A stretch of 64,000 bases of DNA. It comes from Verrucomicrobiota bacterium (lineage in GTDB: Bacteria; Verrucomicrobiota; Kiritimatiellia; JAKQHR01). The translations under genes were made by a program, and so were the position numbers. The notes beneath the pieces were generated by a model. That model was given only the letters and a program-made list of their open reading frames with translations. It was not told the DNA's origin and ran no database searches. The stretch spans positions 23,109 to 87,108 of the forward strand of contig JAKQHR010000072.1 in assembly GCA_029557905.1 (NCBI GenBank), given 5' to 3'. Below, one piece after another: positions 3,993-63,347 of the stretch; positions within the stretch are counted from its first letter, which is position 1; the number at the start of each line of letters is the position of its first letter.

Positions 3993-6035
3993 TCAGCCGC
4001 GTTTTTTTCTTCGACGCGGACGGCTGTAATTCAGGCCGCCGCCTTTCCCGCTTCGCTCCCGGATCACCGGCGCCTTCAATTCCGCCAGCTGGTCGCGCAG
4101 AAACGCCGCGCGCTCGAATTCCAGCGCTGCGGCCGCCTCAAGCATTTCGCGCTCGATGTCTGCGATGACTTCCGCGGTATTATAATCAACTCCGCTCTCG
4201 CGAATCACGCTTTTTTCGACCTCGGCCGCCTCCTCGCGCGTCACGAGACTCTCCTGGATGCTTTTCTGGATGCCCTGCGGCGTGATGTTGTGCTCCGCGT
4301 TGTAGGCCAGCTGAATCTCACGGCGGCGGCGGGTCACATCAATCATCCGTCTCATCGAGTCCGTGATGTTGTCGGCATACATGATCACCTGACCGTTCAC
4401 ATGCCGCGCCGCGCGGCCGGCCGTCTGGATCAGGGAGGTTTCCGAACGCAGAAAGCCTTCTTTGTCCGCATCCAGAATGGCCACAAGCGACACTTCGGGA
4501 AGATCCAGGCCCTCCCGGAGCAGGTTGATGCCGATGAGGCAGTCGAATTCCTTCTTGCGGAGCTGGCGGAGAATCTCGACGCGTTCAATGGCGTCAATCT
4601 CCGAGTGCAGATACTGGACCTTGAGTCCGGTTTCCTGCAGATAGGCCGCCAGATCCTCCGCCGTAAGCTTGGTAAGCGTGGTGACAAGCGTGCGTTCATG
4701 CCGGGTTGCCCGCAAACGCACCTCCTCCATCAAATCGTCAATCTGGTTCGCGAGGGGCCGGACCTCCACTGGCGGATCCAGCAGTCCCGTCGGACGGATA
4801 AGCTGCTGGACCATTTCAGCGGACTGCTCACGCTCAAACGGACCGGGTGTGGCGGACGTGAAAATGGTCTGGCCGGCGGCCTTCATGAACTCGTCGAAGT
4901 TCATGGGCCGGTTGTCCAGCGCGGACGGCAGGCGGAAACCGTGCTCCACAAGCGTGCGCTTGCGGGCCTGGTCGCCGTTGTACATGCCGCGTATTTGCGG
5001 GAGGGTGACATGCGATTCGTCAATGATGGTCAGGAAATCGCCGCGAAAATAGTCCAGCAGCGTGTCCGGCCTTGATCCGGCTTCACGGCCGGACAGATGG
5101 CGTGAATAATTTTCGATCCCCTGGCAGTAGCCGAGTTCCTTCAGCATTTCCATGTCGTATTCCGTGCGCATTTTTATCCGCTGGGCTTCCAGAAGCTTGT
5201 TCTGGCTCTCAAACCAGGCCACCCGCTCGCGCATCTCCTCCAGAATGTTCCCGATCGCCGCCTCCACCTTCGAAAGCGGCATCACAAAATGCTTGGCCGG
5301 GGAAATCGAAATCTCGTCCAGCGAGGCCTCGGAGTTTCCGGTCAGCGGATCAATTCGGCGAATGGCCTCGATCTCGTCGCCGAAAAACTCCACGCGGATG
5401 CCCTTTTTGCTGTAGGAGGGCAGAATATCCACCACATCGCCGCGCACAGAAAATGTGCCCGGAGAATTTTCGTAGTCATTGCGGGAATACTGGATGTCCA
5501 CCAGCCTGCGCAGCACTTCATCGCGGTCGGCGGATTCACCCCGCTTCAGATGCACCAGCATGCTCCGGTAATCCTCCGGAGAGCCCAGCCCGTAGATGCA
5601 CGAGACCGATGCGACGATGATCACATCGTCCCGGTTGATCAGCGAATCCGTTGCCGCCAGCCGGAGGCGTTCAATTTCCGCATTGATGGCCGCATCCTTC
5701 TCAATGAACGTGTCCGTCTGCGGGATATAGGCCTCGGGCTGGTAATAATCGTAGTAGCTGACGAAATATTCGACCGCGTTGTTTGGGAAGAAGCTCTTGA
5801 ACTCGGCGTACAGCTGGGCGGCCAGCGTCTTGTTGTGTGAAATCACCAGCGCGGGCTTGCCCCACCGCGCAATCACATTCGACATCGTAAAGGTTTTGCC
5901 GGAACCAGTCACGCCCTCCAGCGTGATAAACCGGCTCCCCTGCTCCAGCCGGCGGCAGATCTGTTCAATCGCCTCCGGCTGATCACCGGTGGGGCTGTAC
6001 CTGGATTCGATCTGATAAACGGCCTTCTGCGACAT
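3993..6035 (-). CDS. uvrB: excinuclease ABC subunit B
   Basis: [26 protein letters not shown]...GVTGSGKTF...[14 protein letters not shown] aligns end-to-end with E. coli UvrB. The start is set at Met21 of ORF 3993..6095 (cat at 6033-6035). Confidence 0.9.
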
Positions 6036-6118: not shown

Positions 6119-8080
6119 ATGCTAGGTATCGGTCTTCAATTCATGATTACGATTTTTCAGTCTGTTGCGCATCGCCTGTTCGGCCCCTCAGGCGCTCTTC
6201 TGGATGCGAGGGTTCTGTGCGAAGAAAATCTGTGTGAGACCTGCTCTCTGACGGCGAGTTTTCTCCTCGCGCTCGGAGGAGACCGGGATGCGCTGCTGAG
6301 ACTGCAGCGGGCGGAAGGTTCCAATGAATATGCCGGATTTCTCCGCAGGCATCTGGGAACGGTTGAGGAGGAGATTCGCCGCGCCTGTGAATCTCCGGAT
6401 TTCAGGAAACGGCTTCAGGCGCTTGATAAGAATCCATCGGACACCAGCGCACTCCGGATGGTGTTCTTTCCCGAGGGCGCGGGACTGCCGGAAACCCGCG
6501 AAGAAAAAATCGAAGCTCTGCGCCAGAGGAGAACCATACGGATCACAAGCCTCAACCCCAGTCCCCTCTCCGATCCTGTCCGGCAAATGCTGTTCACATC
6601 CAATGTGCTTCTGACGGTGCCCCTGTCCGGCTCGTCGCTTGACGAAATCAACTGCACGGATGAGCTGAAGGCTCGCATTCGCAGTGTTGCAGGCGAAGAG
6701 CAGATGTACTGGTATGATCATCCCATCCCGGTCGGGGTGCGGCCAGAGGCCAATGAAATCCTTTATGGTCTGCGCGGGCTGGACACAGCGGCGGAATTTG
6801 AGCGCGCGCGGGGACTTATGGGCCCCGGAAAAATTGCCTGTGCGCTTTCAGTTTCTGTAACGCACAGGGGGCTTCAGGACATCGCCAGGCAGTACATCGA
6901 GTCAGAAATCCGCAGCGCGGGCGGTTTCCGCAATGTGGATGTTTATGTTTTCACCGAGGCTGACACCAGACGCCTGATCAGAGAAGTGCTCGTCCCGGCC
7001 GGCGGAGATGAGGGGTCCCTGAAAATATTCGGGGTCGATGGCGAATACGGAAGGCACTACAGTTTTCTCAAGGCTGTGGCGGCGCTTTGGCAGGCTGCCG
7101 CAGATCCCGGCGTCCAGGCCACTTTCAAGATCGATCTTGATCAGGTTTTTCCGCAGAAAGAGCTTGTGGAGCAAACGGGAAAATCGGCGTTTGAACACTT
7201 CAAGAGCCCGCTGTGGGGTGCGCACGGACAGGATGCGGACGGATTCCCGGTTGAACTGGGCATGATCGCCGGAGCGCTGGTCAACGAGCGGGACATTGAT
7301 CGGGGAATTTTCACTCCGGATGTCTCCTTCCCGGACGGCCCCGCCGCTCCTGATGAGCGCATCTTCTTCAGCCGAATGACGATGGCCCTTTCAACCCGGG
7401 CCGAGATGATGACGCGATACCGCCCGGACGGCATTGACGGAAAAACGGCATGCATTCAGCGCATCCACGTGACGGGAGGAACAAATGGAATCCGCATTGA
7501 CAGCCTCAGGAAACACCGTCCGTTCACGCCGTCTTTCATCGGCCGGGCCGAGGATCAGTCCTACCTGCTTTCCGTCCTGCTGGAAGAAGGTGAAAAACTC
7601 CGTTATGTTCACAAGGACGGACTGATCATGCGGCATGACAAGGAGGCCTTTGCCGGTGACGCCATTCGGGCCGCATCATTCGGGAACATCATTGGCGACT
7701 ATATCCGCACGCTCTATTTCTCAGAATATGCGCGCGTGCTTGATCCCAGGGGCCTTGAGCGGATCAAGAGCATGGTTGATCCCTTCACCGGCTGCTTCAT
7801 CACCCCCATTCCGGTCATCGTGGTCATGCTGCGGTTCTGCCTGAAGGCTGCCGGGTATTTTCTGGCGGGCGACGGGAAAACCGGAACTGAATTTGTTGAG
7901 GCAAACCATAACCGGCTGGAGCGCGCCATGGCCTTTGCCCGTGAGGAACTGAAGCAGCAGTATGAGCGGGAGCGGGAAGGCTGGAACCGGTATTACGAGC
8001 TGCTTGACCGGCTTCAGCATGAACCGTCGCTGAAAAAGCGCGCCGGCCAAATCATTCAAGACTGCCGTGTCCGGACTTGA
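6119..8080 (+). CDS. large hypothetical protein (653 aa), no recognisable family
   Basis: Long uninterrupted ORF with coherent coding composition. It is divergent from uvrB and convergent with the metalloprotease gene. No signal peptide, TM segment or catalytic motif that I can assign. Confidence 0.5.
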
Positions 8081-8093
8081 ACGGCATCCGGGC

Positions 8094-8182
8094 AAAAAGT
8101 TCCAATGACTGGAATATCCGCCGCAAAAAGTTCCAATGGCTGGAAGTTTTCTGGTCAAAAGTTCCAATGACTGGAACTTTTC
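8094..8182. repeat. REP-like array: 3 tandem copies (period ~31 bp) of a 26-bp palindrome AAAAGTTCCA-ATGAC-TGGAACTTTT
   Basis: Copies start near 8094, 8125 and 8157. Each has 10-bp perfect inverted arms around a 5-nt centre. The array sits between convergent genes (stops at 8080 and 8181) and the third copy overlaps the stop codon of the minus-strand gene. Confidence 0.8.
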
Positions 8183-9032
8183 AATTCAAAAAAGCTTCCA
8201 GTTCTTTTTGCAGCTGATCGGCGCTGTCCATTTCATAATGGATGCGGAAGGCCTCTTCCGCGGACATGCCGTTCATGACATCCAGCGTGAAGGGCATGAT
8301 TTTCTCGGCCGGCTGCCTGAGCATCAGCCAGCCGAAGAGCATTTTGGAGGTCCGGTAGAATGCCTCCACTTCCGCCGGATACTGCGTCGCGGCAAAGAGA
8401 TCAGCCAGCGGATAAAGAACATCCCGCTTTTTGAAGTGAGCCCTTCGGCTTTTCTTGATGCCCTTGAAGGCGGCGTACCCGAATTCCTCATACCATTCGG
8501 CCATGCCCTCGTTCAGCCAGAGCGGCAGGCGCCGGGGAAAGAGCCGGTTGATGACCAAATGCGTCATTTCATGCGCGAGCACACTGCCGCTTTCCGCGGT
8601 GCCGTCCGCCTGTTGCAGAAACATCTCCGGGCCTCTGACTACTGAAAAGGCCCACTCCTCTTTCATGCCGCTCGCGCGGATGAACTCCTGCCAGTCCTTT
8701 GGCGAGCGGAAGATGAAGATGTGAGAACGGACCGCAGGGCCCTGAGCCGGTGCATTCAATTCCTTCGCGATGTGATCGAACAGGAATTCAGCCATGCGCG
8801 CCGCTTTCAGGGCAAAGGTCTTGCGCTCATAATGGTACACAAAGCGCTCCGTCTGCGCGTGCTGCCACCTGATCCCCGGCATCTGCAGAACTTCCCGCCC
8901 GAGAAGCGAGAGGCTGCCGGAGTCCATCTGATCCGGCCCGACTTCCTGAAAATCCGCTTGTGCGGAAACGGCCAGCAGACAGATCATCAGGTTCTTCAGC
9001 ATGCGAAAAGGTTTCCCGGATTGAGGCGGCAC
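8181..9032 (-). CDS. secreted zinc metalloprotease-like protein (HExxH)
   Basis: Signal peptide MLKNLMICLLAVSAQA (the start may be Met11 at 9002). HEMTH plus downstream NEGMAEW resembles a zincin-type active site. Family not assigned. Confidence 0.5.
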   Translation of the reverse strand: MPPQSGKPFRMLKNLMICLLAVSAQADFQEVGPDQMDSGSLSLLGREVLQMPGIRWQHAQTERFVYHYERKTFALKAARMAEFLFDHIAKELNAPAQGPAVRSHIFIFRSPKDWQEFIRASGMKEEWAFSVVRGPEMFLQQADGTAESGSVLAHEMTHLVINRLFPRRLPLWLNEGMAEWYEEFGYAAFKGIKKSRRAHFKKRDVLYPLADLFAATQYPAEVEAFYRTSKMLFGWLMLRQPAEKIMPFTLDVMNGMSAEEAFRIHYEMDSADQLQKELEAFLN

Positions 9033-16195: not shown

Positions 16196-16340
16196 AATGA
16201 TTCCGTCTCCCGCTGATCCTCTGGAACTACTGTCCACAAGATGCATCAAAAACGGACAGTCTTCAAACCTAATCCGCGAGCATCTCGCGGGATCACCGGG
16301 ACTAAATCTGCCGGACCGCTTCCGCCTGCCGTGATGCAAA

Positions 16341-16364
16341 ATAGTACTAATTTAGTACTATTTA
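16341..16364. promoter_or_regulatory. predicted operator: AT-rich palindrome ATAGTACTA-att-TAGTACTATTTA (11-3-11 with flanks), second copy of the rrf2-promoter motif
   Basis: 21 of 24 positions match the motif at 62466-62489. Perfect inverted repeat AAATAGTACTA/TAGTACTATTT. It lies in the divergent GH13/acd intergenic region. Confidence 0.55.
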
Positions 16365-16486: not shown

Positions 16487-16600
16487 GATTTTTGGCCTTT
16501 TTTGACGTTTTTGGGCCGATTTTTGGTCATTTTTTGCATTTTTTGGACGTTTTGGGGCTGTTTTTCGCGTTTTTTTGAGTTTTTTACATGGTATGGCCGC
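16487..16600. repeat. phased T-tract element (about 10 T5-7 tracts at 10-11 bp period; predicted intrinsically curved DNA), copy 1
   Basis: atttttggcc ttttttgacg tttttgggccg atttttggtc attttttgc attttttggacg ttttggggctg tttttcgcg tttttttgag ttttttaca. A core of about 40 bp is nearly identical to the element at 27.3 kb. It is immediately upstream of acd. Confidence 0.7.
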
Positions 16601-27305: not shown

Positions 27306-27423
27306 GATTTTTCACCGTTTTGGGCATTTTCGGGCATTTTTTGACGTTTTTAGGCCGTTTTTGACCATTTTTTGGCCTTTTAGGGCCATTTTTCATCATT
27401 TTTGAGGCCTTTTCGGCCTGCCA
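27306..27423. repeat. phased T-tract element (about 11 T4-6 tracts at 10-11 bp period), copy 2
   Basis: atttttcaccg ttttgggca ttttcgggca ttttttgacg tttttaggccg tttttgacca ttttttggcc ttttagggcca tttttcatca tttttgaggcc ttttcggcc. It shares ttttttgacgtttttRggccg...tttttgRNcatttttt with the 16.5 kb copy. Confidence 0.7.
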
Positions 27424-33858: not shown

Positions 33859-34238
33859 TGGAAAATCAGGAAAAGGATAAAGCCTCTCTTTTCTCGCAGC
33901 TTGTGGCGATGTTCAGCACATCGGCCATGCATCATCTCGGCAAGCTGGTGGACCCCGGCTCGGGCAAGGCCGAAGTCAATCTCGACGGCGCGCGCATGTC
34001 CATTGATCTGCTGACCATGCTTCAGGAGAAGACGGCCGGGAATCTGACGGAGGACGAGGACCGGATGCTGAAGGAGGTGCTGACCGTTCTCCGCCTGAAC
34101 TACGTGGAAACCGCAAATCAGTCCCCCCCGCCCGCTTCGTCTGCACCCGCGCAGGATGATAAGCCGAAGAGGGAAAAAGCTGAATCCGCGGCAGGGAAGG
34201 AAGAGAAAGAACCCCGCTTCCACAAGTCATACAGCTGA
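33858..34238 (+). CDS. DUF1844-like small protein
   Basis: MENQEKDKASLFSQLVAMFSTSAMHHLGKLVDP..GKAEVNLDGARMSIDLLTMLQEKTAGNLTEDE matches my recollection of the DUF1844 pattern. Lys/Glu-rich tail. Confidence 0.45.
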   Translation: MENQEKDKASLFSQLVAMFSTSAMHHLGKLVDPGSGKAEVNLDGARMSIDLLTMLQEKTAGNLTEDEDRMLKEVLTVLRLNYVETANQSPPPASSAPAQDDKPKREKAESAAGKEEKEPRFHKSYS

Positions 34239-34933
34239 TGGTCAGACTTATCAAATGGGCCGATGCCGCAGCCAGGGAGGTTTGGGCCTTCCTGAAGTTT
34301 GCAGGCCATCTTGCCCGGCCGTCATCGCATCCGGCCGTTCAAGTGAGCGGCCTGCTGAGCCTGGCCATCCTGATCGGCCTTCTGGCCTATATCTCCCGCG
34401 CCACAGTGCACTATGCATATATCCCGCCCGGTGAATCTGTGCTCCAACAGGCGGAACTGCACCTGCTGACCGCGGTCAGGGCGGAACCGGATGCCTTCAA
34501 ACCCAACATGCGGCTTCCGCATCGAAGCGAGATAAGAAGCTCGGGAGCCATCCATCTGAAGGCCTTCTTCCCCGAATATGACCTGATGCATGTGGATGAC
34601 CCCCGCGTCTGGTGGGAAAGCGACCATGATACAGATGACGTGGAGGATGATCATCTGGTGCACTACGCCATGGAAATTCCCTTGAAGCGCCTGATTGAGC
34701 TGGTGCATCGTGAAGGAGGAAAACTGAAGGTTCAGGACGCCTACCGCGCGGACGGGATCCATTACCCCAAATCACTTCACAAGGAAGGCAGGGCCATTGA
34801 TTTGACCTGCGAGAACATGACTCTCGAAAAGCTTGCCAAGCTTTGCTGGGCCGCCGATTTTGACTGGGTCTTCTATGAGGCTCCGAAGGGCGGAGGTCAT
34901 CACATCCATGCCTCCGTCCGCGCCGACCGGTGA
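34238..34933 (+). CDS. membrane-anchored Hedgehog N-terminal signalling (Hedge) domain-like protein, LAS/M15-type zinc peptidase fold
   Basis: KLKVQDAYRADGIHYPKSLHKEGRAIDLTCENMTLEKLAKLCWAADFDWVFYEAPKGGGHHIHASVRADR aligns closely with Sonic hedgehog [69 protein letters not shown], including the Zn ligands H, D and H. N-terminal TM helix VSGLLSLAILIGLLAYI. Confidence 0.6.
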   Translation: MVRLIKWADAAAREVWAFLKFAGHLARPSSHPAVQVSGLLSLAILIGLLAYISRATVHYAYIPPGESVLQQAELHLLTAVRAEPDAFKPNMRLPHRSEIRSSGAIHLKAFFPEYDLMHVDDPRVWWESDHDTDDVEDDHLVHYAMEIPLKRLIELVHREGGKLKVQDAYRADGIHYPKSLHKEGRAIDLTCENMTLEKLAKLCWAADFDWVFYEAPKGGGHHIHASVRADR

Positions 34934-35005: not shown

Positions 35006-36319
35006 ATGAATTCAAAGATGGCGGTTGCAATAGGTTCGGATCACGGCGGTTTTGATCTCAAGCAGGCGCTCATTCCATATCTCAAAGAGATCGGTTTCAC
35101 TGTGGTGGACTGCGGCATACGCGACAAGGCCACCGCCGACTATCCCCGCATTGCCTTCGGAGTCGCCCAGCGTGTGGCCTCCGGCCAGTGCGCACGGGGC
35201 ATTGTGATTGACGGCGCAGGCATCGGGTCGGCCATGACCGCCAACAAGGTTCGCGGCGTGCGGGCTGCCGCCTGCTACAGCGTTGCGCTGGCCAACAATG
35301 CCCGCGAGCACAATGACGCAAATGTCTTGACTCTCGGCTCGGGCCAGACCAGTCTGGAGGACGCTAAAGGCATTATAACCAAGTTTCTAGGCACCGATTG
35401 CACCGCGGCGCGGCATCTGCGCCGGGTGCGGATGATAGAGGAAGTCGAGCGCGGCGCGCTGAAAGTTCAGCCGCCGGAATCAGGAAAACAGGAGAACGAA
35501 GTGGACCTTTCACCTCAGGATGTCGAACGGATTGCACAACGGGTCAAACAGCTCATTTCCGGAGGCGGAAGCGCCGCGCCTTCGGGCAAAGCGGCGGGAG
35601 TCACCCCCACCCAACTCGCGGGTATGATTGATCATACCATTTTGAAGCCGGAAACCTCCCGCAGCGATGTTGATCGCATTTGCAAGGAAGCGCTGCAGTA
35701 CAAGTTCTGCTCGGTGTGCGTGAATCCGGTGAACGTGCCCCAGGTGGCCAAGGCGCTCAAGGGCTCAACCGTCAAGGTCTGCTGTGTGGTCGGATTCCCC
35801 CTGGGCGCGGCCGATCCCTCCATCAAGGCCCTTGAAACCCGCAAGGCCATCCGCGAAGGCGCGCAGGAAATTGACATGGTCATCAATGTCGGCGCCCTGA
35901 AAAGCGGAGACTACGACCTGGTTCTGCGCGATATCCGCGCCGTGGTTGAAGCCTGCCAGGAGCGGCGCATCCTTTCCAAAGTCATTCTGGAGACCAGCCT
36001 GCTGTCCGATGAGGAGAAGGTCAAGGCCTGCGAACTGAGCATGAAGGCCGGGGCCAGTTATGTGAAAACATCCACCGGCTTCAGCGGCGGCGGAGCCACG
36101 GCTGCGGACATCGCGCTGATGGCGGCGACGGTGGCCTCCAAGCGGCTGGGAGTGAAAGCCTCGGGCGGAGTCCGAAACTACCAGGACGCCATCAACATGA
36201 TCAACGCCGGCGCCACGCGCATCGGTGCCAGCAGCAGCGTGAACATTATTGAAGAAGCCAAGGCCGTTGCCGAAGGCAGGGAATATAAACCGGATTCGAA
36301 ATCGAAAGGAGCATACTAG
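35006..36319 (+). CDS. RpiB/LacAB-type sugar-phosphate isomerase fused to deoxyribose-phosphate aldolase (DeoC), with an inter-domain amphipathic helix and Gly/Ala/Pro linker
   Basis: The N-terminal half ([15 protein letters not shown]...[20 protein letters not shown]) is RpiB-like. The C-terminal half ([11 protein letters not shown]...CVVGFPLG...KVILET...VKTSTGF) is DeoC class I aldolase. Between them lies [27 protein letters not shown]. Confidence 0.75.
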
Positions 36320-36936
36320 TGGCTGAATTAAGAACATATGTGTTTCTGGACAGTCTGCAACCGCAGCACGCGTCCTTCCTTGCGACCGTGGCGAAGGGAT
36401 TTTTGCCGACGGCCGGACAGGCGTCGCTGTTCGTGGAGATTGCTCCGGGCATCGCGATCAACAGCGTGACCGACGTGGCCCTCAAGTCCACAAACGTGAC
36501 GCCGGGCATGCAGATCGTTGAACGCCAGTACGGCATGCTGGAAATCCATTCGGACTCCCAGGCCGACGTGCGTGAGGCCGGACGCGCCATCCTGCGCGAA
36601 CTGGACCTCAAGGAAGAGGACCGCATCAAACCCAAGGTGCTCACAAGTCAGGTCATCCGGAGCGTGTCCGACTATCAGACGCAGCTCATCAACCGCATGC
36701 GCCATGGAAACATGATTGTCCCCGGCGAAACCATGTATGTGATGGAAATCGCCCCGGCCGGGTATGCCGCGCTGGCGGCCAACGAGGCTGAAAAAGCGGC
36801 GCATATCAACATCCTGGAAGTGCGCGCAACCGGAAGCTTCGGGCGTGTATATCTGGGCGGCGATGAGAAGGATATTGACGTGGCCTACCGCGCGGCGGAG
36901 CAGGCTGTCGAAGCAATCGTGGGAAGAGAAGGTTGA
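36319..36936 (+). CDS. BMC-T shell protein, tandem circularly permuted BMC domains (EutS/PduU-like x2)
   Basis: Both halves show the permuted-BMC pattern (FVEIAPGIAINSVTDVALKS... and MYVMEIAPAGYAALAANEAEKAAHINILEV...GSFGRVYLGG), comparable to EutS [29 protein letters not shown]...FSGALVIYGS. Confidence 0.55.
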   Translation: MAELRTYVFLDSLQPQHASFLATVAKGFLPTAGQASLFVEIAPGIAINSVTDVALKSTNVTPGMQIVERQYGMLEIHSDSQADVREAGRAILRELDLKEEDRIKPKVLTSQVIRSVSDYQTQLINRMRHGNMIVPGETMYVMEIAPAGYAALAANEAEKAAHINILEVRATGSFGRVYLGGDEKDIDVAYRAAEQAVEAIVGREG

Positions 36937-36980
36937 TTTTCCCCGTCATCATCAGAAAACAAAGAAGAGAGAGGTAAGAA

Positions 36981-37283
36981 ATGGCTGAAGCATTAGGTAT
37001 GATCGAAACACGGTCTTTCCCCGCGAGCGTGGAAGCGGCCGATGCAATGGTTAAGGCAGCGAAGGTTGAACTGGTCTCCTTTGAGAAGACCGGCGGAGGA
37101 TATACTTCCGTCGTGGTGCGGGGCGACGTGGCCGCTGTGAAAGCCGCCTGTGACGCCGGGCAGATCGCCGCCGGACGCGTGGGTGAAGTGGTGGCCGTGC
37201 ATGTGATTGCACGCCCGCATGCCAACGTGGACGCGGTCCTTCCGCTGGGACGCGCCACCGAGTCGTCCAAGGCCAAGAAATAA
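36981..37283 (+). CDS. BMC-H hexameric shell protein (PduA/CcmK/EutM family)
   Basis: [60 protein letters not shown] is the canonical BMC domain. Confidence 0.9.
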
Positions 37284-37343
37284 TTTAGCGCGCAAAGCGG
37301 CCGGGCGGTGATGCCGCCCGGCCGCCTTCAGGAGTTCCAAGGA

Positions 37344-37640
37344 ATGAATCTTGGCAAAGTGATAGGCACAGTGGTTGCCACGCGCAAGGAATCCAGCATG
37401 GACGGCTTGAAGTTCCTGCTGGTGCAGCATTTGGATCACGAACGCAAACCCACCGGTTCTCAGGTCGTCGCGGCGGACGCCGTCGGCGCCGGACCCGGGG
37501 AAATGGTTCTTGTCGCAACAGGCAGTTCCGCCCGCCAGACCGCGGCCACCGACAAACGTCCCTGTGACGCCGTCATCATGGCCATCGTGGACAGCTGGAG
37601 CGTGGACGGCGTGACCAAATACTGCAAGTCAGACGACTGA
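37344..37640 (+). CDS. BMC-P pentameric vertex protein (EutN/CcmL/PduN family), paralog 1
   Basis: [28 protein letters not shown]... The start is set at Met13 of ORF 37308 and is preceded by aagga. Confidence 0.8.
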
Positions 37641-37759
37641 TGGTCAGTCGCTGCGCGCGTGGATGATTCTCCCGGACGGACCTCACGGTTTCCGGTTCCG
37701 CGTTGATTTGCCGCCCGCCAAAGCGGGCAATGTGTTCAGTTATAGACGAAAGAAGGTAT

Positions 37760-39208
37760 GCTATGGCAAAACTGACCGATCAGGATATTGAAGCCATTGC
37801 CCAGAAAATAGTCAGCGATCTGAAAGGCGCAGCCCCTGCCCCGTCCGCATCTGTGGAAAGGACTCCGGCCGCCGCCGTCGCCGGGCCCGGCGTGTTTCAA
37901 ACACTGGATGAAGCCGTCGCCGCAGCAGGCAAAGCCCAGCCCGTTTTCGTCGCGCTTCCGATGGAAACGCGCGCAAAGATCATTGAAAATATCCGCAAGA
38001 GCATGATGGAGAATTCCGTCGCCCTGGCCAAGGCGGCACACGAGGAAACCGGGCTTGGGCGCTTTGAGGACAAGATTGTCAAGAATCAGCTGGTGACCAT
38101 GAAAACCCCCGGGATTGAAGATCTTCCTCCGAAGGCCTATACCGGGGATCACGGACTGACACTGGAGGAGCCGGCCCCGTTCGGCGTTATCGGCTCCATT
38201 ACTCCGACGACAAACCCGACCTCCACCATCATCTGCAACACAATCGGCATGATTGCCGCAGGGAACAGCGTCGTGTTCAACTGCCACCCGAGCGCCGTGA
38301 ACTGTTCGATGCAGACCATTGTCCTTCTCAACAAGGCCATTATGGAAGCCGGCGGACCTCCCAATGTAATCACGGCCGTTGCCAAACCGACGATCGAAAG
38401 TGCACAGGCCCTTATGAAGCACCCGGGCATCCGCCTGCTGGTGGTCACCGGCGGCGGCGGTGTGGTAAAGGCGGCCATGGAGAGCGGCAAACGCGCGATT
38501 TGCGCCGGACCCGGCAACCCGCCGGTTGTCGTGGACGAAACCGCGGATCTCGAACAGGCCGGCCGCGATATTGTTCTCGGCGCCTCGACTGACAACAACA
38601 TTATCTGCGCCGATGAAAAGGAAGTGCTGGTCGTCAGCAGCGTGGCCGACAAGCTGATCCAGGTCATGACGCGCAACAATGCCGTTCTGATCGACAAGAG
38701 CAAGCTTCAGGCGCTGGAGAAGGTCATCTTCAAGGAAATGGCCGGGCCGCGCGGCCATGCAACCGTCAACCGTGACTGCATAGGGAAGAATGCCGATGTC
38801 ATCCTCGCGAAGATGGGCATGAATGTGCCAAGCACAACGCGTCTCGGAATCATCGAGGTGGATCAGAACCATCCGCTGGTCTGGACTGAGCAGATGATGC
38901 CGATCCTCCCTATCGTGCGCGTTCCCGACGCCAGCTATGCGATTGATTTCGCAGTGGAGGTTGAAGGCGGATGCCGTCACACCTTTGTGATGCACTCGCG
39001 CAACATTGACAATCTCAGCAAAATGGCGAAGAAGTGCAATGCCAGCCTGTTTGTGAAAAACGGACGCTCCCAGACCGCATTCGGCCTCGGCGGCGAAGGC
39101 TACTGCTCGTTTACCATCGCCAGTCCCACCGGCGAAGGCATGACCGGCCCGCACAGCTTCTCGCGTTCGCGCCGCTGCATCCTTGTGGATCACTTCAGGA
39201 TTGTGTAA
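37760..39208 (+). CDS. CoA-acylating aldehyde dehydrogenase (PduP/EutE-like) with N-terminal encapsulation-type helix
   Basis: ALDH fold with catalytic Cys region (IICADEKEV...NNIICA) and no C-terminal extension. The N-terminus DQDIEAIAQKIVSDLKG is followed by an Ala/Pro-rich linker. The start is set at MAKLTDQ. Confidence 0.85.
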   Translation, partial: AMAKLTDQDIEAIAQKIVSDLKGAAPAPSASVERTPAAAVAGPGVFQTLDEAVAAAGKAQPVFVALPMETRAKIIENIRKSMMENSVALAKAAHEETGLGRFEDKIVKNQLVTMKTPGIEDLPPKAYTGDHGLTLEEPAPFGVIGSITPTTNPTSTIICNTIGMIAAGNSVVFNCHPSAVNCSMQTIVLLNKAIMEAGGPPNVITAVAKPTIESAQALMKHPGIRLLVVTGGGGVVKAAMESGKRAICAGPGNPPVVVDETADLEQAGRDIVLGASTDNNIICADEKEVLVVSSVADKLIQVMTRNNAVLIDKSKLQALEKVIFKEMAGPRGHATVNRDCIGKNADVILAKMGMNVPSTTRLGIIEVDQNHPLVWTEQMMPILPIVRVPDASYAIDFAVEVEGGCRHTFVMHSRNIDNLSKMAKKCNASLFVKNGRSQTAFGLGGEGYCSFTIASPTGEGMTGPHSFSRSRRCILVDHFRIV

Positions 39209-39819
39209 TGAAGAAATTCCCGGCCATGGCACTGGTGGAGTTCAACGGCATCGCCGTTGGCATGCATGCCACCGACGCCATGCTGAAGAAATCGCCCATC
39301 AATCTGCTGAAGTGCGGAACCATCAGTCGGGGGCATTATCTCACCGTTGTGGCCGGAACAACAGCCTCTGTGGACGAAGCCCTTGATGAAGGGCTCTTTC
39401 TGGCCGGAGACAACGTGGTGGACAGCACATTTCTCCCGGATATTGATACGCGTCTGCACAATGCGATACTGGGGCAGTCGCTTCCCATGAGTGCCGGCGC
39501 CATCGCCGTCATGGAAACGCCCACCGTCTGCTGCAATGTGCGGGCTGCCGAAATGGCGCTTAAGGGCACGCCGGTCGAACTGGTTGAAATCCGCCTGGGC
39601 GACTCACAGATGGGCGGACGCGGCATGTCAATTTTTCAGGGGGAGCTGCACGATATCGAGGCATCCATAGACATTGCGGTCGCCTATCTGCAGGGCAAAA
39701 ACATCGAGCCCGTGTATAAAATCCTCACGGCCCCGCATGAAGGAATGCTTGCGCAGATTGAAAACAGCACCAGGTTCCTCAACTCAACCAACCTGGAACT
39801 TGAAGGGGAGTTTGACTGA
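39208..39819 (+). CDS. BMC-T shell protein, tandem canonical BMC domains (PduT/CcmO-like), contains CC motif
   Basis: AMALVEFNGIAVGMHATDAMLKKSP and AIAVMETPTVCCNVRAAEMALKGTPVELVEI are two canonical BMC domains. The ATG overlaps the aldDH stop (TAATG). The start is set at MKKFPAM. Confidence 0.75.
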   Translation: MKKFPAMALVEFNGIAVGMHATDAMLKKSPINLLKCGTISRGHYLTVVAGTTASVDEALDEGLFLAGDNVVDSTFLPDIDTRLHNAILGQSLPMSAGAIAVMETPTVCCNVRAAEMALKGTPVELVEIRLGDSQMGGRGMSIFQGELHDIEASIDIAVAYLQGKNIEPVYKILTAPHEGMLAQIENSTRFLNSTNLELEGEFD

Positions 39820-39820
39820 A

Positions 39821-40108
39821 ATGAAACTGGGCAAAGTCATTGGACAGGTTGTTCCATGCGAGGTTTACGAGGGACTCGAAACCGTTCCCATGCTCTGGGT
39901 GCAGCCGCTCGACAAGAAGGGCCATCCCAAGGGCGCAGCGATCGTCTGTGCGGATTCCACCCGCATGGCGGGTCCCGGGGAGCTGATCTACTATGAGGGC
40001 GGACGGGAAGCCGCAATGACACTGGATCCGGTTTTTGTTCCTGTTGACCATGCCATTGTCGGCATCGTGGACGACATGGCGCTGGACCAGGGTGGAGGTG
40101 ACGCATGA
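39821..40108 (+). CDS. BMC-P pentameric vertex protein, paralog 2
   Basis: MKLGKVIGQVVPCEVYEGLETVPMLWVQPLD... matches the EutN/CcmL fold pattern. The start is set at the internal Met of ORF 39674. Confidence 0.8.
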   Translation: MKLGKVIGQVVPCEVYEGLETVPMLWVQPLDKKGHPKGAAIVCADSTRMAGPGELIYYEGGREAAMTLDPVFVPVDHAIVGIVDDMALDQGGGDA

Positions 40109-40374
40109 TCGCAGGCAGAGTGACCGGCCATATCTTCTCCACGATCAACCATCCCTTCTATGACGGGAAGCGCATGCTTGTCGTCGAGAAGATTGACGAA
40201 AACGGGAAGGCGCTGAACGATTATGTCATTGCCGTGGACACCGTGGATGCCGGACCCGGCGACAAGGTTCTCATCGTGGATGAGGGCAACGGAGCGCGCC
40301 AGATTCTTCAGTCCTCCGACGGCCCCGTTCGCTCCGTGATTGTCGGGATCATTGATCAGATCACAGTGGATTGA
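40105..40374 (+). CDS. BMC-P pentameric vertex protein, paralog 3
   Basis: MIAGRVTGHIFSTINHPFYDGKRMLVVEKIDENG...VDTVDAGPGDKVLIVDEGNGAR is the EutN/PduN pattern. Overlaps paralog 2 by 4 nt. Confidence 0.8.
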   Translation: MIAGRVTGHIFSTINHPFYDGKRMLVVEKIDENGKALNDYVIAVDTVDAGPGDKVLIVDEGNGARQILQSSDGPVRSVIVGIIDQITVD

Positions 40375-62450: not shown

Positions 62451-62465
62451 GGATGCTCCTTTAAT

Positions 62466-62489
62466 ATAGTACTAAAATAGTACTATTTA
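62466..62489. promoter_or_regulatory. predicted Rrf2 operator: ATAGTACTA-aaa-TAGTACTAT (9-3-9 palindrome) 16-39 bp upstream of the rrf2 start
   Basis: Perfect inverted arms whose half-site TAGTACTA is itself palindromic. AT-rich in a 62% GC background. Matches the site at 16341-16364. Confidence 0.6.
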
Positions 62490-62522: not shown

Positions 62523-62894
62523 TCAGGATATCTTTTTCGGCCACGCCCTGAGGATGCTCATGACCTCCCGGACCCAGGTGCAGACGCACTGGGCCGGACA
62601 CCGCCCGTCCTGTCCCAGATGCGCGCAGTAGCCCGGGCAGTCCGGTCCCCCGTACCGGCATTCCTGCCAGACCGGCCCGTCGTACAAATCCCGGAATTCC
62701 TCCACGGAAACGGCGAGCGTGGTGGTGCACTGCATGATGTGATTGAAAAGGAAATAGCCCAGATGCCGCCCCTCAAACATCGGCTGATATCCCAGAAACT
62801 CCACACGGGAATCGGCCAGGAACGAATCCCTGTCCGGCCAGCTGGTGCCGCACGTCGTGCAGTTCTTGAAACAATGGTCCTTCGCGCTCTTCAC
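62523..62894 (-). CDS. Cys-rich small protein (123 aa), hypothetical
   Basis: CFKNCTTC (Cx3Cx2C) near the N-terminus and CPGYC...CPAQCVC at the C-terminus. Preferred over the overlapping plus-strand ORF 62496..63188, which reads through the repeat array. Confidence 0.4.
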   Translation of the reverse strand: MKSAKDHCFKNCTTCGTSWPDRDSFLADSRVEFLGYQPMFEGRHLGYFLFNHIMQCTTTLAVSVEEFRDLYDGPVWQECRYGGPDCPGYCAHLGQDGRCPAQCVCTWVREVMSILRAWPKKIS

Positions 62895-62965
62895 TATTTC
62901 CTCTGTTCTTTAAAATCTAATGGACGCGCCGTCACTTTGCAAGAACTGCGCAGTCTGCTCCTTCG

Positions 62966-63057
62966 GCTCATGACCCGAAAAGTTCCAGTCATTGGAAGTT
63001 TTCAGACCAAAAGTTCCAATCATTGGAACTTTTCAGACAGAAAGTTCCAGTCATTGG
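62966..63057. repeat. REP-like array, 3 tandem copies (period 31 bp) of AAAAGTTCCAGTCATTGGAACTTTT (inverse orientation of the 8.1 kb array)
   Basis: Copies start near 62968, 62999 and 63030. The core is the reverse complement of the 8094-8182 units. It lies between two minus-strand genes. Confidence 0.8.
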
Positions 63058-63161
63058 AAGTTTTGCGCAAGGGCGGAATTTCAGCAGGACGCGGACTGCC
63101 ACAGGGCCCGAACACGGCCGCATATTCGCGAAGGAGCGGCGGATGTATTCGCGCGGATATC

Positions 63162-63347
63162 TTACTTCAGGCCCAGTTTGCGGAATAACATTTCCGCCGG
63201 GCAGAAGCCCGTGAAAGCGGACTGAATCAGGTTGACTCCCACGAAGCAGGTCAGAAGAAGCCACCACGGGCTGACATAATATGCCAGCGCCGCGCTGACC
63301 AGCACCAGTGTTCCCGCCAGAATCCGTACTGCATTTTCAACGGTCAT
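63162..63347 (-). CDS. DUF2892-like small inner-membrane protein
   Basis: 61 aa with two TM helices and the conserved W/CFGxN-type core (TCFVGVNLIQSAFTGFCP) typical of the YgaP-like DUF2892 family. Confidence 0.5.
   Translation of the reverse strand: MTVENAVRILAGTLVLVSAALAYYVSPWWLLLTCFVGVNLIQSAFTGFCPAEMLFRKLGLK

Follow-up and report, generated by a model that had tools for sequence, protein, structure and literature searches.

Helically phased arrays of a short palindromic repeat in the bacterial class Kiritimatiellia, candidate sites for a DNA-bending or DNA-wrapping protein

Introduction

Does a short palindrome that recurs between bacterial genes act as a hairpin or as a site on duplex DNA? 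The question is still debated for repetitive extragenic palindromic (REP) elements, and it is raised anew by a stretch of 64,000 nucleotides from a Verrucomicrobiota bacterium (assembly GCA_029557905.1, contig JAKQHR010000072.1, positions 23,109 to 87,108), here called the window. Three copies of an A+T-rich palindrome lie head to tail in the gap between two convergent genes, and a second, mutually inverted array lies elsewhere in the window, with 54.8 kb between the two. An initial annotation regarded the units as REP-like members of a genome-wide family that may act as terminators or bind a nucleoid protein. Here we report that the arrays belong to a large repeat family of the class Kiritimatiellia, apparently undescribed in the literature found, and that its statistics separate the palindrome as hairpin from the palindrome as duplex site. 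Our preferred explanation, to which we give slightly less than an even chance on the strength of sequence statistics, is that the arrays are helically phased sites for a predicted dimeric protein that bends or wraps DNA. Clade-wide repeats of defined geometry are rare; this one offers a searchable signature for a group of poorly studied polysaccharide-degrading anaerobes, and a concrete handle for finding the protein that reads it.

Results and Discussion

Two three-unit arrays with an exact period

Reading of the window confirmed two triple tandem arrays with an exact 31-bp period, the second one inverted, as initially annotated. Both were grouped as one family by a repeat finder, and a 17-mer searched at up to three mismatches matched ten times in the window, compared to 0.11 matches expected from 100 dinucleotide-preserving shuffles. 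Outside the two arrays neither the full word nor its half-sites were enriched in the window, and the word was absent from genes in the window and its clade.

The unit has the layout A4-S-TTCCA-N5-TGGAA-S-T4 (S, G or C). It is palindromic, as first described, with a length of 25 bp (10+5+10) rather than 26 bp. Array 1 (8095..8181, plus strand) consists of three head-to-tail units centred at 8107, 8138 and 8169. The right flank of unit 1 (8095-8119, core 8100..8114, TTCCAATGACTGGAA) is lost (TGGAATATCC), reading TATCC instead of STTTT. Unit 2 (8126-8150, core 8131..8145, TTCCAATGGCTGGAA) has the flanks AAAAG and GTTTT, which are non-complementary at ±8, and unit 3 (8157-8181, core 8162..8176, TTCCAATGACTGGAA) has the flanks AAAAG and CTTTT, its T-run meeting a stop codon at 8181-8183. 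Array 2 was initially placed at 62966-63057; its true position is about 10 bp further right (62978..63064, minus strand), with centres at 62990, 63021 and 63052 and AAAAC...CTTTT on the sense (minus) strand. Its outer units (62978-63002, core 62983..62997; 63040-63064, core 63045..63059) share the core TTCCAGTCATTGGAA, and the middle one (63009-63033, core 63014..63028, TTCCAATCATTGGAA) equals the family consensus, a perfect palindrome. The loop bases ATGAC in array 1 and GTCAT in array 2 identify the latter as the reverse complement orientation. Perfectly complementary 10-bp arms, at first ascribed to the unit in general, were found in two of the six units (array 1 unit 3 and array 2 unit 2); the others are affected by flank loss or by mismatches at ±8, with G/G (AAAAG...GTTTT) in three units.

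A repeat family across the Kiritimatiellia

A scan of 185,579 species genomes for AAAGTTCCARTSRYTGGAA yielded at least 113 loci. Among the 113 matches listed, about 85 came from Kiritimatiellia, Pontiellaceae, Tichowtungia or 'Verrucomicrobiota' metagenome-assembled genomes (MAGs), representing at least 25 assemblies, and the others were isolated matches in unrelated taxa, of the kind that chance would produce. The nearest genome in the species collection (JBFXGK01, about 80% DNA identity over 3.6-6.7 kb of shared genes) holds at least 15 array loci among the matches listed. Independently of the genome scan, a metagenome scan for the junction TGGAA-S-T4-N6-A4-S-TTCCA revealed at least 81 distinct arrays. 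In 0.85 Mb of retrieved loci, TTCCA-N5-TGGAA at no more than one mismatch accounted for 472 units, compared to 20 in shuffled DNA. Core density reached 0.4-1 per kb of retrieved loci in many Kiritimatiellia genomes and metagenomes, whereas about 0.02 per kb is expected by chance. The gap between the half-sites is fixed, since TTCCA-Nn-TGGAA was enriched solely at n = 5 (123 vs. 0.56 expected in one genome, 19 vs. 0.19 in another). The genome-wide family proposed initially is therefore borne out, and it is far larger than proposed, extending class-wide in Kiritimatiellia.

Base frequencies over 292 units delimit the conserved part as a 15-bp palindrome, TTCCAAT-S-ATTGGAA, the A4/T4 flanks being characteristic of the window's clade. 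One sub-lineage has no fixed bases in its central 3 bp, and its arrays comprise up to 7-9 units. Placement relative to genes also varies. In the window's clade, 40 of 44 and 6 of 6 exact cores lay outside coding-like open reading frames (ORFs). Pontiellaceae B12227 and several Kiritimatiellales MAGs carry the core as single copies (0.6-0.9 per kb of retrieved loci), over half of which are intragenic and occupy all three reading frames; the host ORFs confirmed by Pfam encode TatD, a 2-hydroxyacid dehydrogenase, a cation-efflux (CDF) transporter, an FGGY kinase and YidC.

Rfam returned no match at gathering thresholds and noise alone at E<1, and no literature was found that contained the core sequence or linked Kiritimatiellia to palindromes, REPs or highly iterated palindromes (HIPs). 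A phage origin was rejected, a single doublet being present among 2.9 million viral contigs. In a separate case, a unit is present in two identical copies, 1015 bp from each other and within identical 34-bp surroundings, at 4207 and 5222 of a Pontiellaceae MAG locus (L053), beside a MazF/PemK-like toxin gene; this repeated unit may be a duplicated cassette.

Dyad symmetry without selection for pairing

At every variable symmetric position of the unit the Watson-Crick fraction equalled the product of the marginals. In the larger set, the pair at ±8 was GG in 80, CC in 66, GC in 36 and CG in 14 units, a complementarity of 0.20 where 0.39 was expected (chi-square P=1e-12). Since symmetric positions do not covary and complementarity at ±8 is avoided, the dyad symmetry appears to serve recognition of duplex DNA. 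Extended hairpins are, if anything, selected against.

Single units nevertheless fold at -7.5 to -10.8 kcal/mol, solely by pairing four U with four A, and the folds of the arrays are more stable than those of shuffles (z = -2.9 and -3.4). The initial annotation had read each unit as a bidirectional terminator composed of a hairpin and a U-tract. Like intrinsic terminators, the units run from A-run through palindrome to T-run and often stand right after stop codons. However, an intrinsic terminator has a G+C-rich stem followed by at least 5-7 unpaired U, whereas here the stem is A+T-rich and the four-nucleotide U-run is consumed by pairing with the A-run; it is the sequence that is conserved and not the pairing. 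A simple terminator scan flagged no unit, and canonical terminator-like hairpins were at chance level in the window. Nor are the arrays restricted to 3' ends: of the arrays classified on both sides, 14 of 65 and 6 of 39 are flanked by divergent genes, in promoter regions, and array 2 is situated upstream of a promoter-like site. For these reasons the terminator proposal is not supported. Binding of a nucleoid protein, offered initially as the alternative, is the reading best supported by the sequence statistics.

Spacing follows the helical repeat

Centre-to-centre distances were 31 bp in 76 cases, 32 bp in 86 and 33 bp in 7, together 169 of 192 close spacings. Among the other spacings at 16-70 bp, 19 of 23 fell within 1.5 bp of a multiple of 10.5 bp, compared to 25% expected (P=1.5e-8). 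A period of 31-32 bp amounts to three helical turns, and hence would place neighbouring dimers on the same face of the DNA. The period is lineage-specific (31 bp in the window's clade, 32 bp in bin-1020), and some lineages have single units alone. Linkers are unconstrained in sequence apart from their composition. The best A/T period was 10.28 bp in both window arrays (P about 0.03 each), and the same value was the mode among other arrays. In the 31-bp clade, three units were present in 52 of 81 listed arrays (63% after ascertainment correction); in bin-1020, array size peaks at two units. As expected of a phased operator, half-sites are conserved independently and spacing is limited to whole helical turns.

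Two further stretches of the window, at 16489-16594 and 27307-27422, contain about ten T4-7 tracts each, phased every 10-11 bp (TTTTTGGCC TTTTTTGACG TTTTTGGGCCGA ...). Their A/T periodicity at 10.28 bp has a power of 5.3-5.8, the 95th percentile of shuffles being about 1.5, and they probably form intrinsically curved DNA. The first is situated upstream of an acetyl-CoA synthetase gene (16588, plus strand), the second between two minus-strand genes.

Arrays persist at orthologous sites and vary by whole units

Strains with an identical copy of the peptidase-like protein encoded to the right of array 1 carry either three or two units there, the shorter form arising by exact loss of one 31-bp unit, which corresponds to unit 2. 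Orthologues of this gene at 88% and 71% identity have three units at the same 3' end, and in the 71% relative the other neighbour gene differs; a relative at 73% identity has no array. Array 2 comprised three units in all eight same-species contigs. Its place upstream of a gene for a 123-aa protein is kept in relatives at 79% (two units) and 73% (three units) protein identity. In a relative at 71% (L139) there is no array, and phased A/T-tract DNA is found at that place; it is possible that curved DNA replaces array 2 at this orthologous site. In all orthologous comparisons the cores were conserved while the linkers and the surrounding intergenic DNA had diverged. Seven clusters of similar flanks with differing unit numbers were found, five of which pair contigs from different samples. 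Downstream of queC, where one locus (L113) carries an array and the window carries none, the DNA was non-homologous and no clean empty-site junction was seen.

Whole-unit variation among strains could make the arrays useful as strain markers. The arrays also break assemblies: one same-species assembly has a run of N exactly at the array (L119, 3832-3930), indicating that the repeat breaks or confuses short-read scaffolding.

Gene context and polarity

Flanking genes were classified by our own ORF calls, filtered by G+C content at third codon positions (GC3) and checked against collection gene calls where present. A first set comprised 19 convergent, 14 divergent and 32 tandem contexts, against a background of about 1:1:3.4, and a second set 11, 6 and 22, respectively. 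The enrichment in convergent regions that had been anticipated is thus modest, and array 2, between two co-directional minus-strand genes, does not conform to it. Arrays face 5' and 3' gene ends alike, and the flanking genes are mutually unrelated.

Where a 3' end faces an array, the stop codon very often coincides with the array edge (TGA-AAAS) or is supplied by the central TGA of the first unit, and its distance to the array is often -14 to +20 nt. An independently called case is the M3 peptidase gene of locus L138. In array 1, the overlap of the third copy with the minus-strand stop codon, noticed at the outset, amounts to 1 nt (the T at 8181, first base of 8181-8183). Since stop codons and long spurious ORFs run through them, arrays can mislead gene callers. 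The idea that three units at 31 bp (3n+1) provide stop codons in three frames was rejected: a central TGA is found in only about 60-65% of oriented units, and on the minus strand of array 1, which is sense for the peptidase-like gene, the unit centres are TCA and TGA is absent.

The usual G/G or C/C pair at ±8 gives each unit a direction. Polarity within arrays was uniform (63 concordant and 0 discordant neighbour pairs; 30.5 expected). The form AAAAC...CTTTT was on the sense strand in 25 of 31 arrays between co-directional genes (P=9e-4) and evenly split in convergent and divergent regions, and polarity was anti-correlated with the GC skew of the flanks (P=0.002). Both window arrays follow this rule, the minus strand of array 1, sense for the peptidase-like gene, carrying the common polarity. 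Such an arrangement would place C/C, the most destabilising mismatch, on the strand that is single-stranded during transcription or lagging-strand synthesis, where it could suppress extrusion of a hairpin. A strand-specific mobile or RNA-level mechanism would be an alternative account of polarity.

Phased sites for a predicted dimeric protein

The protein that we propose would be Kiritimatiellia-wide, dimeric and sequence-specific, each dimer reading two TTCCAA half-sites one helical turn apart. A/T-rich sequence is found at the dyad and, as the A4/T4 tracts, at ±10.5 bp, and the linker at ±15.5 bp is G+C-rich, a pattern that suggests bending of the DNA towards the protein. Cooperative binding of dimers on the same face could bend or wrap about 60-130 bp of DNA at the borders of genes, as an architectural, insulating or roadblock element with a possible effect on the neighbouring genes. 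Arrays would grow and shrink by whole units through recombination between repeats. The occurrence of arrays in every intergenic type, beside unrelated genes, supports this explanation, as does the selection at orthologous sites, where cores are kept while linkers diverge.

Lrp/AsnC-family proteins have sites spaced by about three helical turns, and tandem NrdR boxes are separated by 31-32 bp. These operator arrays resemble the Kiritimatiellia arrays in their 15-16-bp dyad sites, in the 31-32-bp spacing equal to three turns, in their clusters of 2-5 and in their A/T-rich, bendable DNA. In contrast to them, operators of this kind are found at a few specific promoters, whereas the Kiritimatiellia arrays number in the hundreds, lie at 5' and 3' ends of unrelated genes, have another core and a binder that is so far predicted.

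Several observations weigh against phased protein sites. Clustering of 189 flanking ORFs gave no recurrent neighbour gene, and so no gene family as candidate binder, or transposase, beside the arrays. A density of about 1 per kb, including intragenic sites in sister lineages, is high for a specific DNA-binding protein. The preferred array size varies by lineage between three, two and single units, arguing against one fixed oligomer. A symmetric dimer does not account for array polarity, which, together with the stop codons embedded in array edges and the traces of tandem duplication in long arrays, would also be compatible with a mobile or RNA-level element that is strand-specific. Finally, gene contexts other than those of the array 1 and array 2 orthologous loci rest on the GC3-based ORF heuristic.

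A bolder form of the proposal, which we consider speculative and rather more apt to fail than to hold, is a clade-specific architectural system. An abundant protein would nucleate on TTCCAA-N3-TTGGAA and wrap about 60-280 bp on three-turn arrays into nucleoprotein particles at gene boundaries, with polarity tuned against hairpin folding of the exposed strand. If true, this would amount to a bacterial positioning code that is sequence-programmed and nucleosome-like.

Two known types of site were tried and dropped. The half-site resembles GTTCCAC of parS, but the units differ from a parS/Noc-like site in their spacing and odd length, and they number in the hundreds. For an ECF (extracytoplasmic function) sigma factor -35 element (GGAACTT) there is no matching -10, and the units are palindromic and tandem.

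Comparison with REP elements and other repeats

The initial annotation likened the units to REPs and suggested that a REP-associated tyrosine transposase (RAYT) be sought. As a selfish repeat of this type, the units would be strand-specific hairpin substrates moved by a Y1 transposase (RAYT or IS200-like), or by another enzyme acting on single-stranded DNA, on the lagging-strand template; arrays would result from tandem re-insertion or duplication, and any binding of protein would be secondary. We regard this as unlikely, though a good deal about the family is in keeping with it. REPs and bacterial interspersed mosaic elements (BIMEs) of enterobacteria and pseudomonads are likewise palindromes of about 25 bp, in hundreds to thousands of mostly intergenic copies, often clustered, at gene ends and with strain-variable unit number, and their proposed roles include protein binding (IHF, gyrase), termination and mRNA stability. 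Copy number in the Kiritimatiellia is high and lineage-variable and, in the window's clade, the units are short imperfect palindromes that are mostly extragenic; in other lineages, many copies lie within genes, housekeeping genes among them, which counts against a selfish repeat. The REP/BIME core is also a species or genus property, whereas this core is class-wide, A+T-rich in a 58% G+C genome, and set head to tail in 31/32-bp arrays of uniform rather than alternating polarity.

The mark that defines most REP families is a tetranucleotide, GTAG or CGTC, which terminates the stem-loop on one side (PMC3733652). Neither was present in the base-frequency tables from -22 to +22, which contained A/T runs and S at ±8 only. 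RAYT genes were searched by tblastn with an E. coli RAYT, and then with the resulting hit. Y1_Tnp genes are present in the class, two being detected in 1.9 Mb of Kiritimatiellia genome fragments (L101, confirmed as Pfam PF01797, and L151, by tblastn alone), but neither is flanked by units, the nearest good ones in the fragments sampled being 191 bp and 7.8 kb away. In the strict sense of a RAYT-associated repeat, the REP assignment is thus not supported, given the missing tag, the unflanked Y1 genes and the intragenic units of sister lineages.

The polarity of the arrays, uniform and biased to gene direction and GC skew, would be expected of single-stranded transposition, and the variation of unit number among strains, the similarity of linkers within long arrays and the stop codons at or inside array edges are compatible with it. 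On the other hand, stem complementarity is not maintained, compensatory changes are lacking and pairing at ±8 is avoided; orthologous arrays are kept while linkers diverge; array ends show neither a target motif nor a target-site duplication; and transposition does not predict that odd spacings follow the helical repeat. In one sub-lineage, G+C clamps form terminal inverted repeats around the arrays, a further point in favour of mobility. Contigs of Ga0164318 (L147, L222 and others) contain arrays of TTCCAA-N3-TTGGAA bracketed by a half-unit and such a clamp (GGGCGGCC-TTGGAAC ... GTTCCAA-GGCCGCCC), and in having terminal inverted repeats these resemble a miniature inverted-repeat transposable element (MITE) or a REP doublet forming a hairpin (REPIN).

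A role at the RNA level appears decidedly unlikely. Arrays would be transcribed with the upstream gene and act either as stacked weak intrinsic terminators or, as is possible for E. coli REPs, as 3' hairpins shielding the mRNA. The folding energies given above, the superiority of the arrays over shuffles and the conserved T4/A4 flanks of the window's clade are consistent with this, many arrays abut stop codons with their polarity following the sense strand (25 of 31), and the chance-level occurrence of canonical terminator-like hairpins in the window would leave room for another signal. However, the U-run of 4 nt is paired with the A-run, the simple terminator scan passes over the units, pairing is unselected and ±8 is preferentially mismatched. 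Arrays are also found between divergent genes and upstream of promoters, units are intragenic in sister lineages, and the helical phasing of odd spacings has no rationale in RNA.

Even less probable, in our judgement, is a word amplified by drive, either an uptake signal or a HIP1-like palindrome kept by a methyltransferase and biased mismatch repair, with the arrays as a by-product. The intragenic copies of Pontiellaceae B12227 and others, at 0.6-0.9 per kb and in three frames, do recall uptake signal and DNA uptake sequences (USS and DUS) and HIP1. Like HIP1 of cyanobacteria (GCGATCGC), the core is a palindromic word common to a large clade; it occurs about once per kb, has in some genomes intragenic copies in all frames, and lacks an accepted function. 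In contrast to this 8-mer, it is bipartite, 15 bp long and, in the window's clade, confined to intergenic phased arrays with A/T-tract flanks; there, genes lack the word, and half-sites show no excess outside arrays. Fixed 31/32-bp phasing, A/T periodicity and a preferred array size are not predicted by drive. The dRS3 repeats of neisserial intergenic mosaic elements (NIMEs) and DUS pairs are also clade-wide, short palindromic or inverted repeats gathering in intergenic arrays at gene ends, but dRS3 flanks variable segments of 50-150 bp and serves as a phage integration site, DUS is asymmetric, and neither has a fixed three-turn period.

That the two arrays, inverted and 54.8 kb apart, are the ends of a 55-kb mobile element with several transposase sites per end, as in Tn7 or Mu, has a negligible chance of being right and was refuted by the genes present between them and by the separate distribution of each array: the interval contains ordinary genes (leuS, a cysteine desulfurase-type aminotransferase, LptE, a microcompartment locus, PTS (phosphotransferase system) enzyme I and hcp), the roughly 40 gene-like ORFs scanned included neither a transposase nor an integrase (46-57 kb and some small ORFs lay outside the scan), and each array occurs separately at orthologous sites in relatives, with hundreds of such arrays elsewhere.

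Genes around the arrays and further features of the window

The window is ordinary chromosome of about 58% G+C, with trpA, uvrB, a biotin-ligase-like gene, ADP-forming acetyl-CoA synthetase, leuS, LptE, a microcompartment cluster, PTS enzyme I and Rrf2-hcp. Array 1 occupies the 100 bp separating two convergent genes. On its left, a plus-strand gene (6119..8080), whose stop codon precedes the array by 14 nt, encodes a 653-aa protein lacking a Pfam match; on its right, the minus-strand gene whose stop codon touches unit 3 (8181..9002) encodes a 273-aa Peptidase_MA_2-like protein. A 100% identical copy of the array 1 neighbour protein is found in a Kiritimatiellia MAG, and the protein is present on many digester and sludge metagenome contigs.

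The genes beside array 2 were taken from gene calls on same-species contigs and mapped to the window. On its 3' side, 84 bp downstream of the array, lies the minus-strand gene of a 123-aa Cys-rich protein (62523..62894); on its 5' side, the 3' end of a minus-strand gene for a 61-aa YgaP-like_TM protein (63162..63347) faces the array at about 97 bp. A putative promoter, TTGCAA (62937-62942), 17 nt and TAGATT (62914-62919), read by eye and unflagged by the scan, lies between the array and the 123-aa gene. The Cys-rich protein belongs to no Pfam family, has homologues at 45-54% identity in Desulfobacterales MAGs and adjoins Rrf2-hcp in Kiritimatiellia; it is a candidate for an undescribed redox or nitrosative-stress protein.

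A paired palindrome, TAGTACTA-N3-TAGTACTA, occurs twice in the window and is probably the operator of an Rrf2 regulator. The copy at 62463-62489 overlaps a near-consensus promoter (TTGACA-17-TATTTT, 62502-62474 on the minus strand) immediately 5' of the Rrf2-hcp operon, and the copy at 16338-16364 sits at the start of a gene for a 1552-aa amylase-like protein. The microcompartment cluster (35006-40374) is of the Planctomycete/Verrucomicrobia type and encodes an RpiB-DeoC fusion, a BMC-domain protein, an aldehyde dehydrogenase and EutN/CcmL. A 231-aa protein encoded at 34238-34933 gives a match to the Hedgehog amino-terminal signalling domain (PF01085, E=4.8e-12), which is unusual in bacteria; it probably represents a related zinc peptidase fold.

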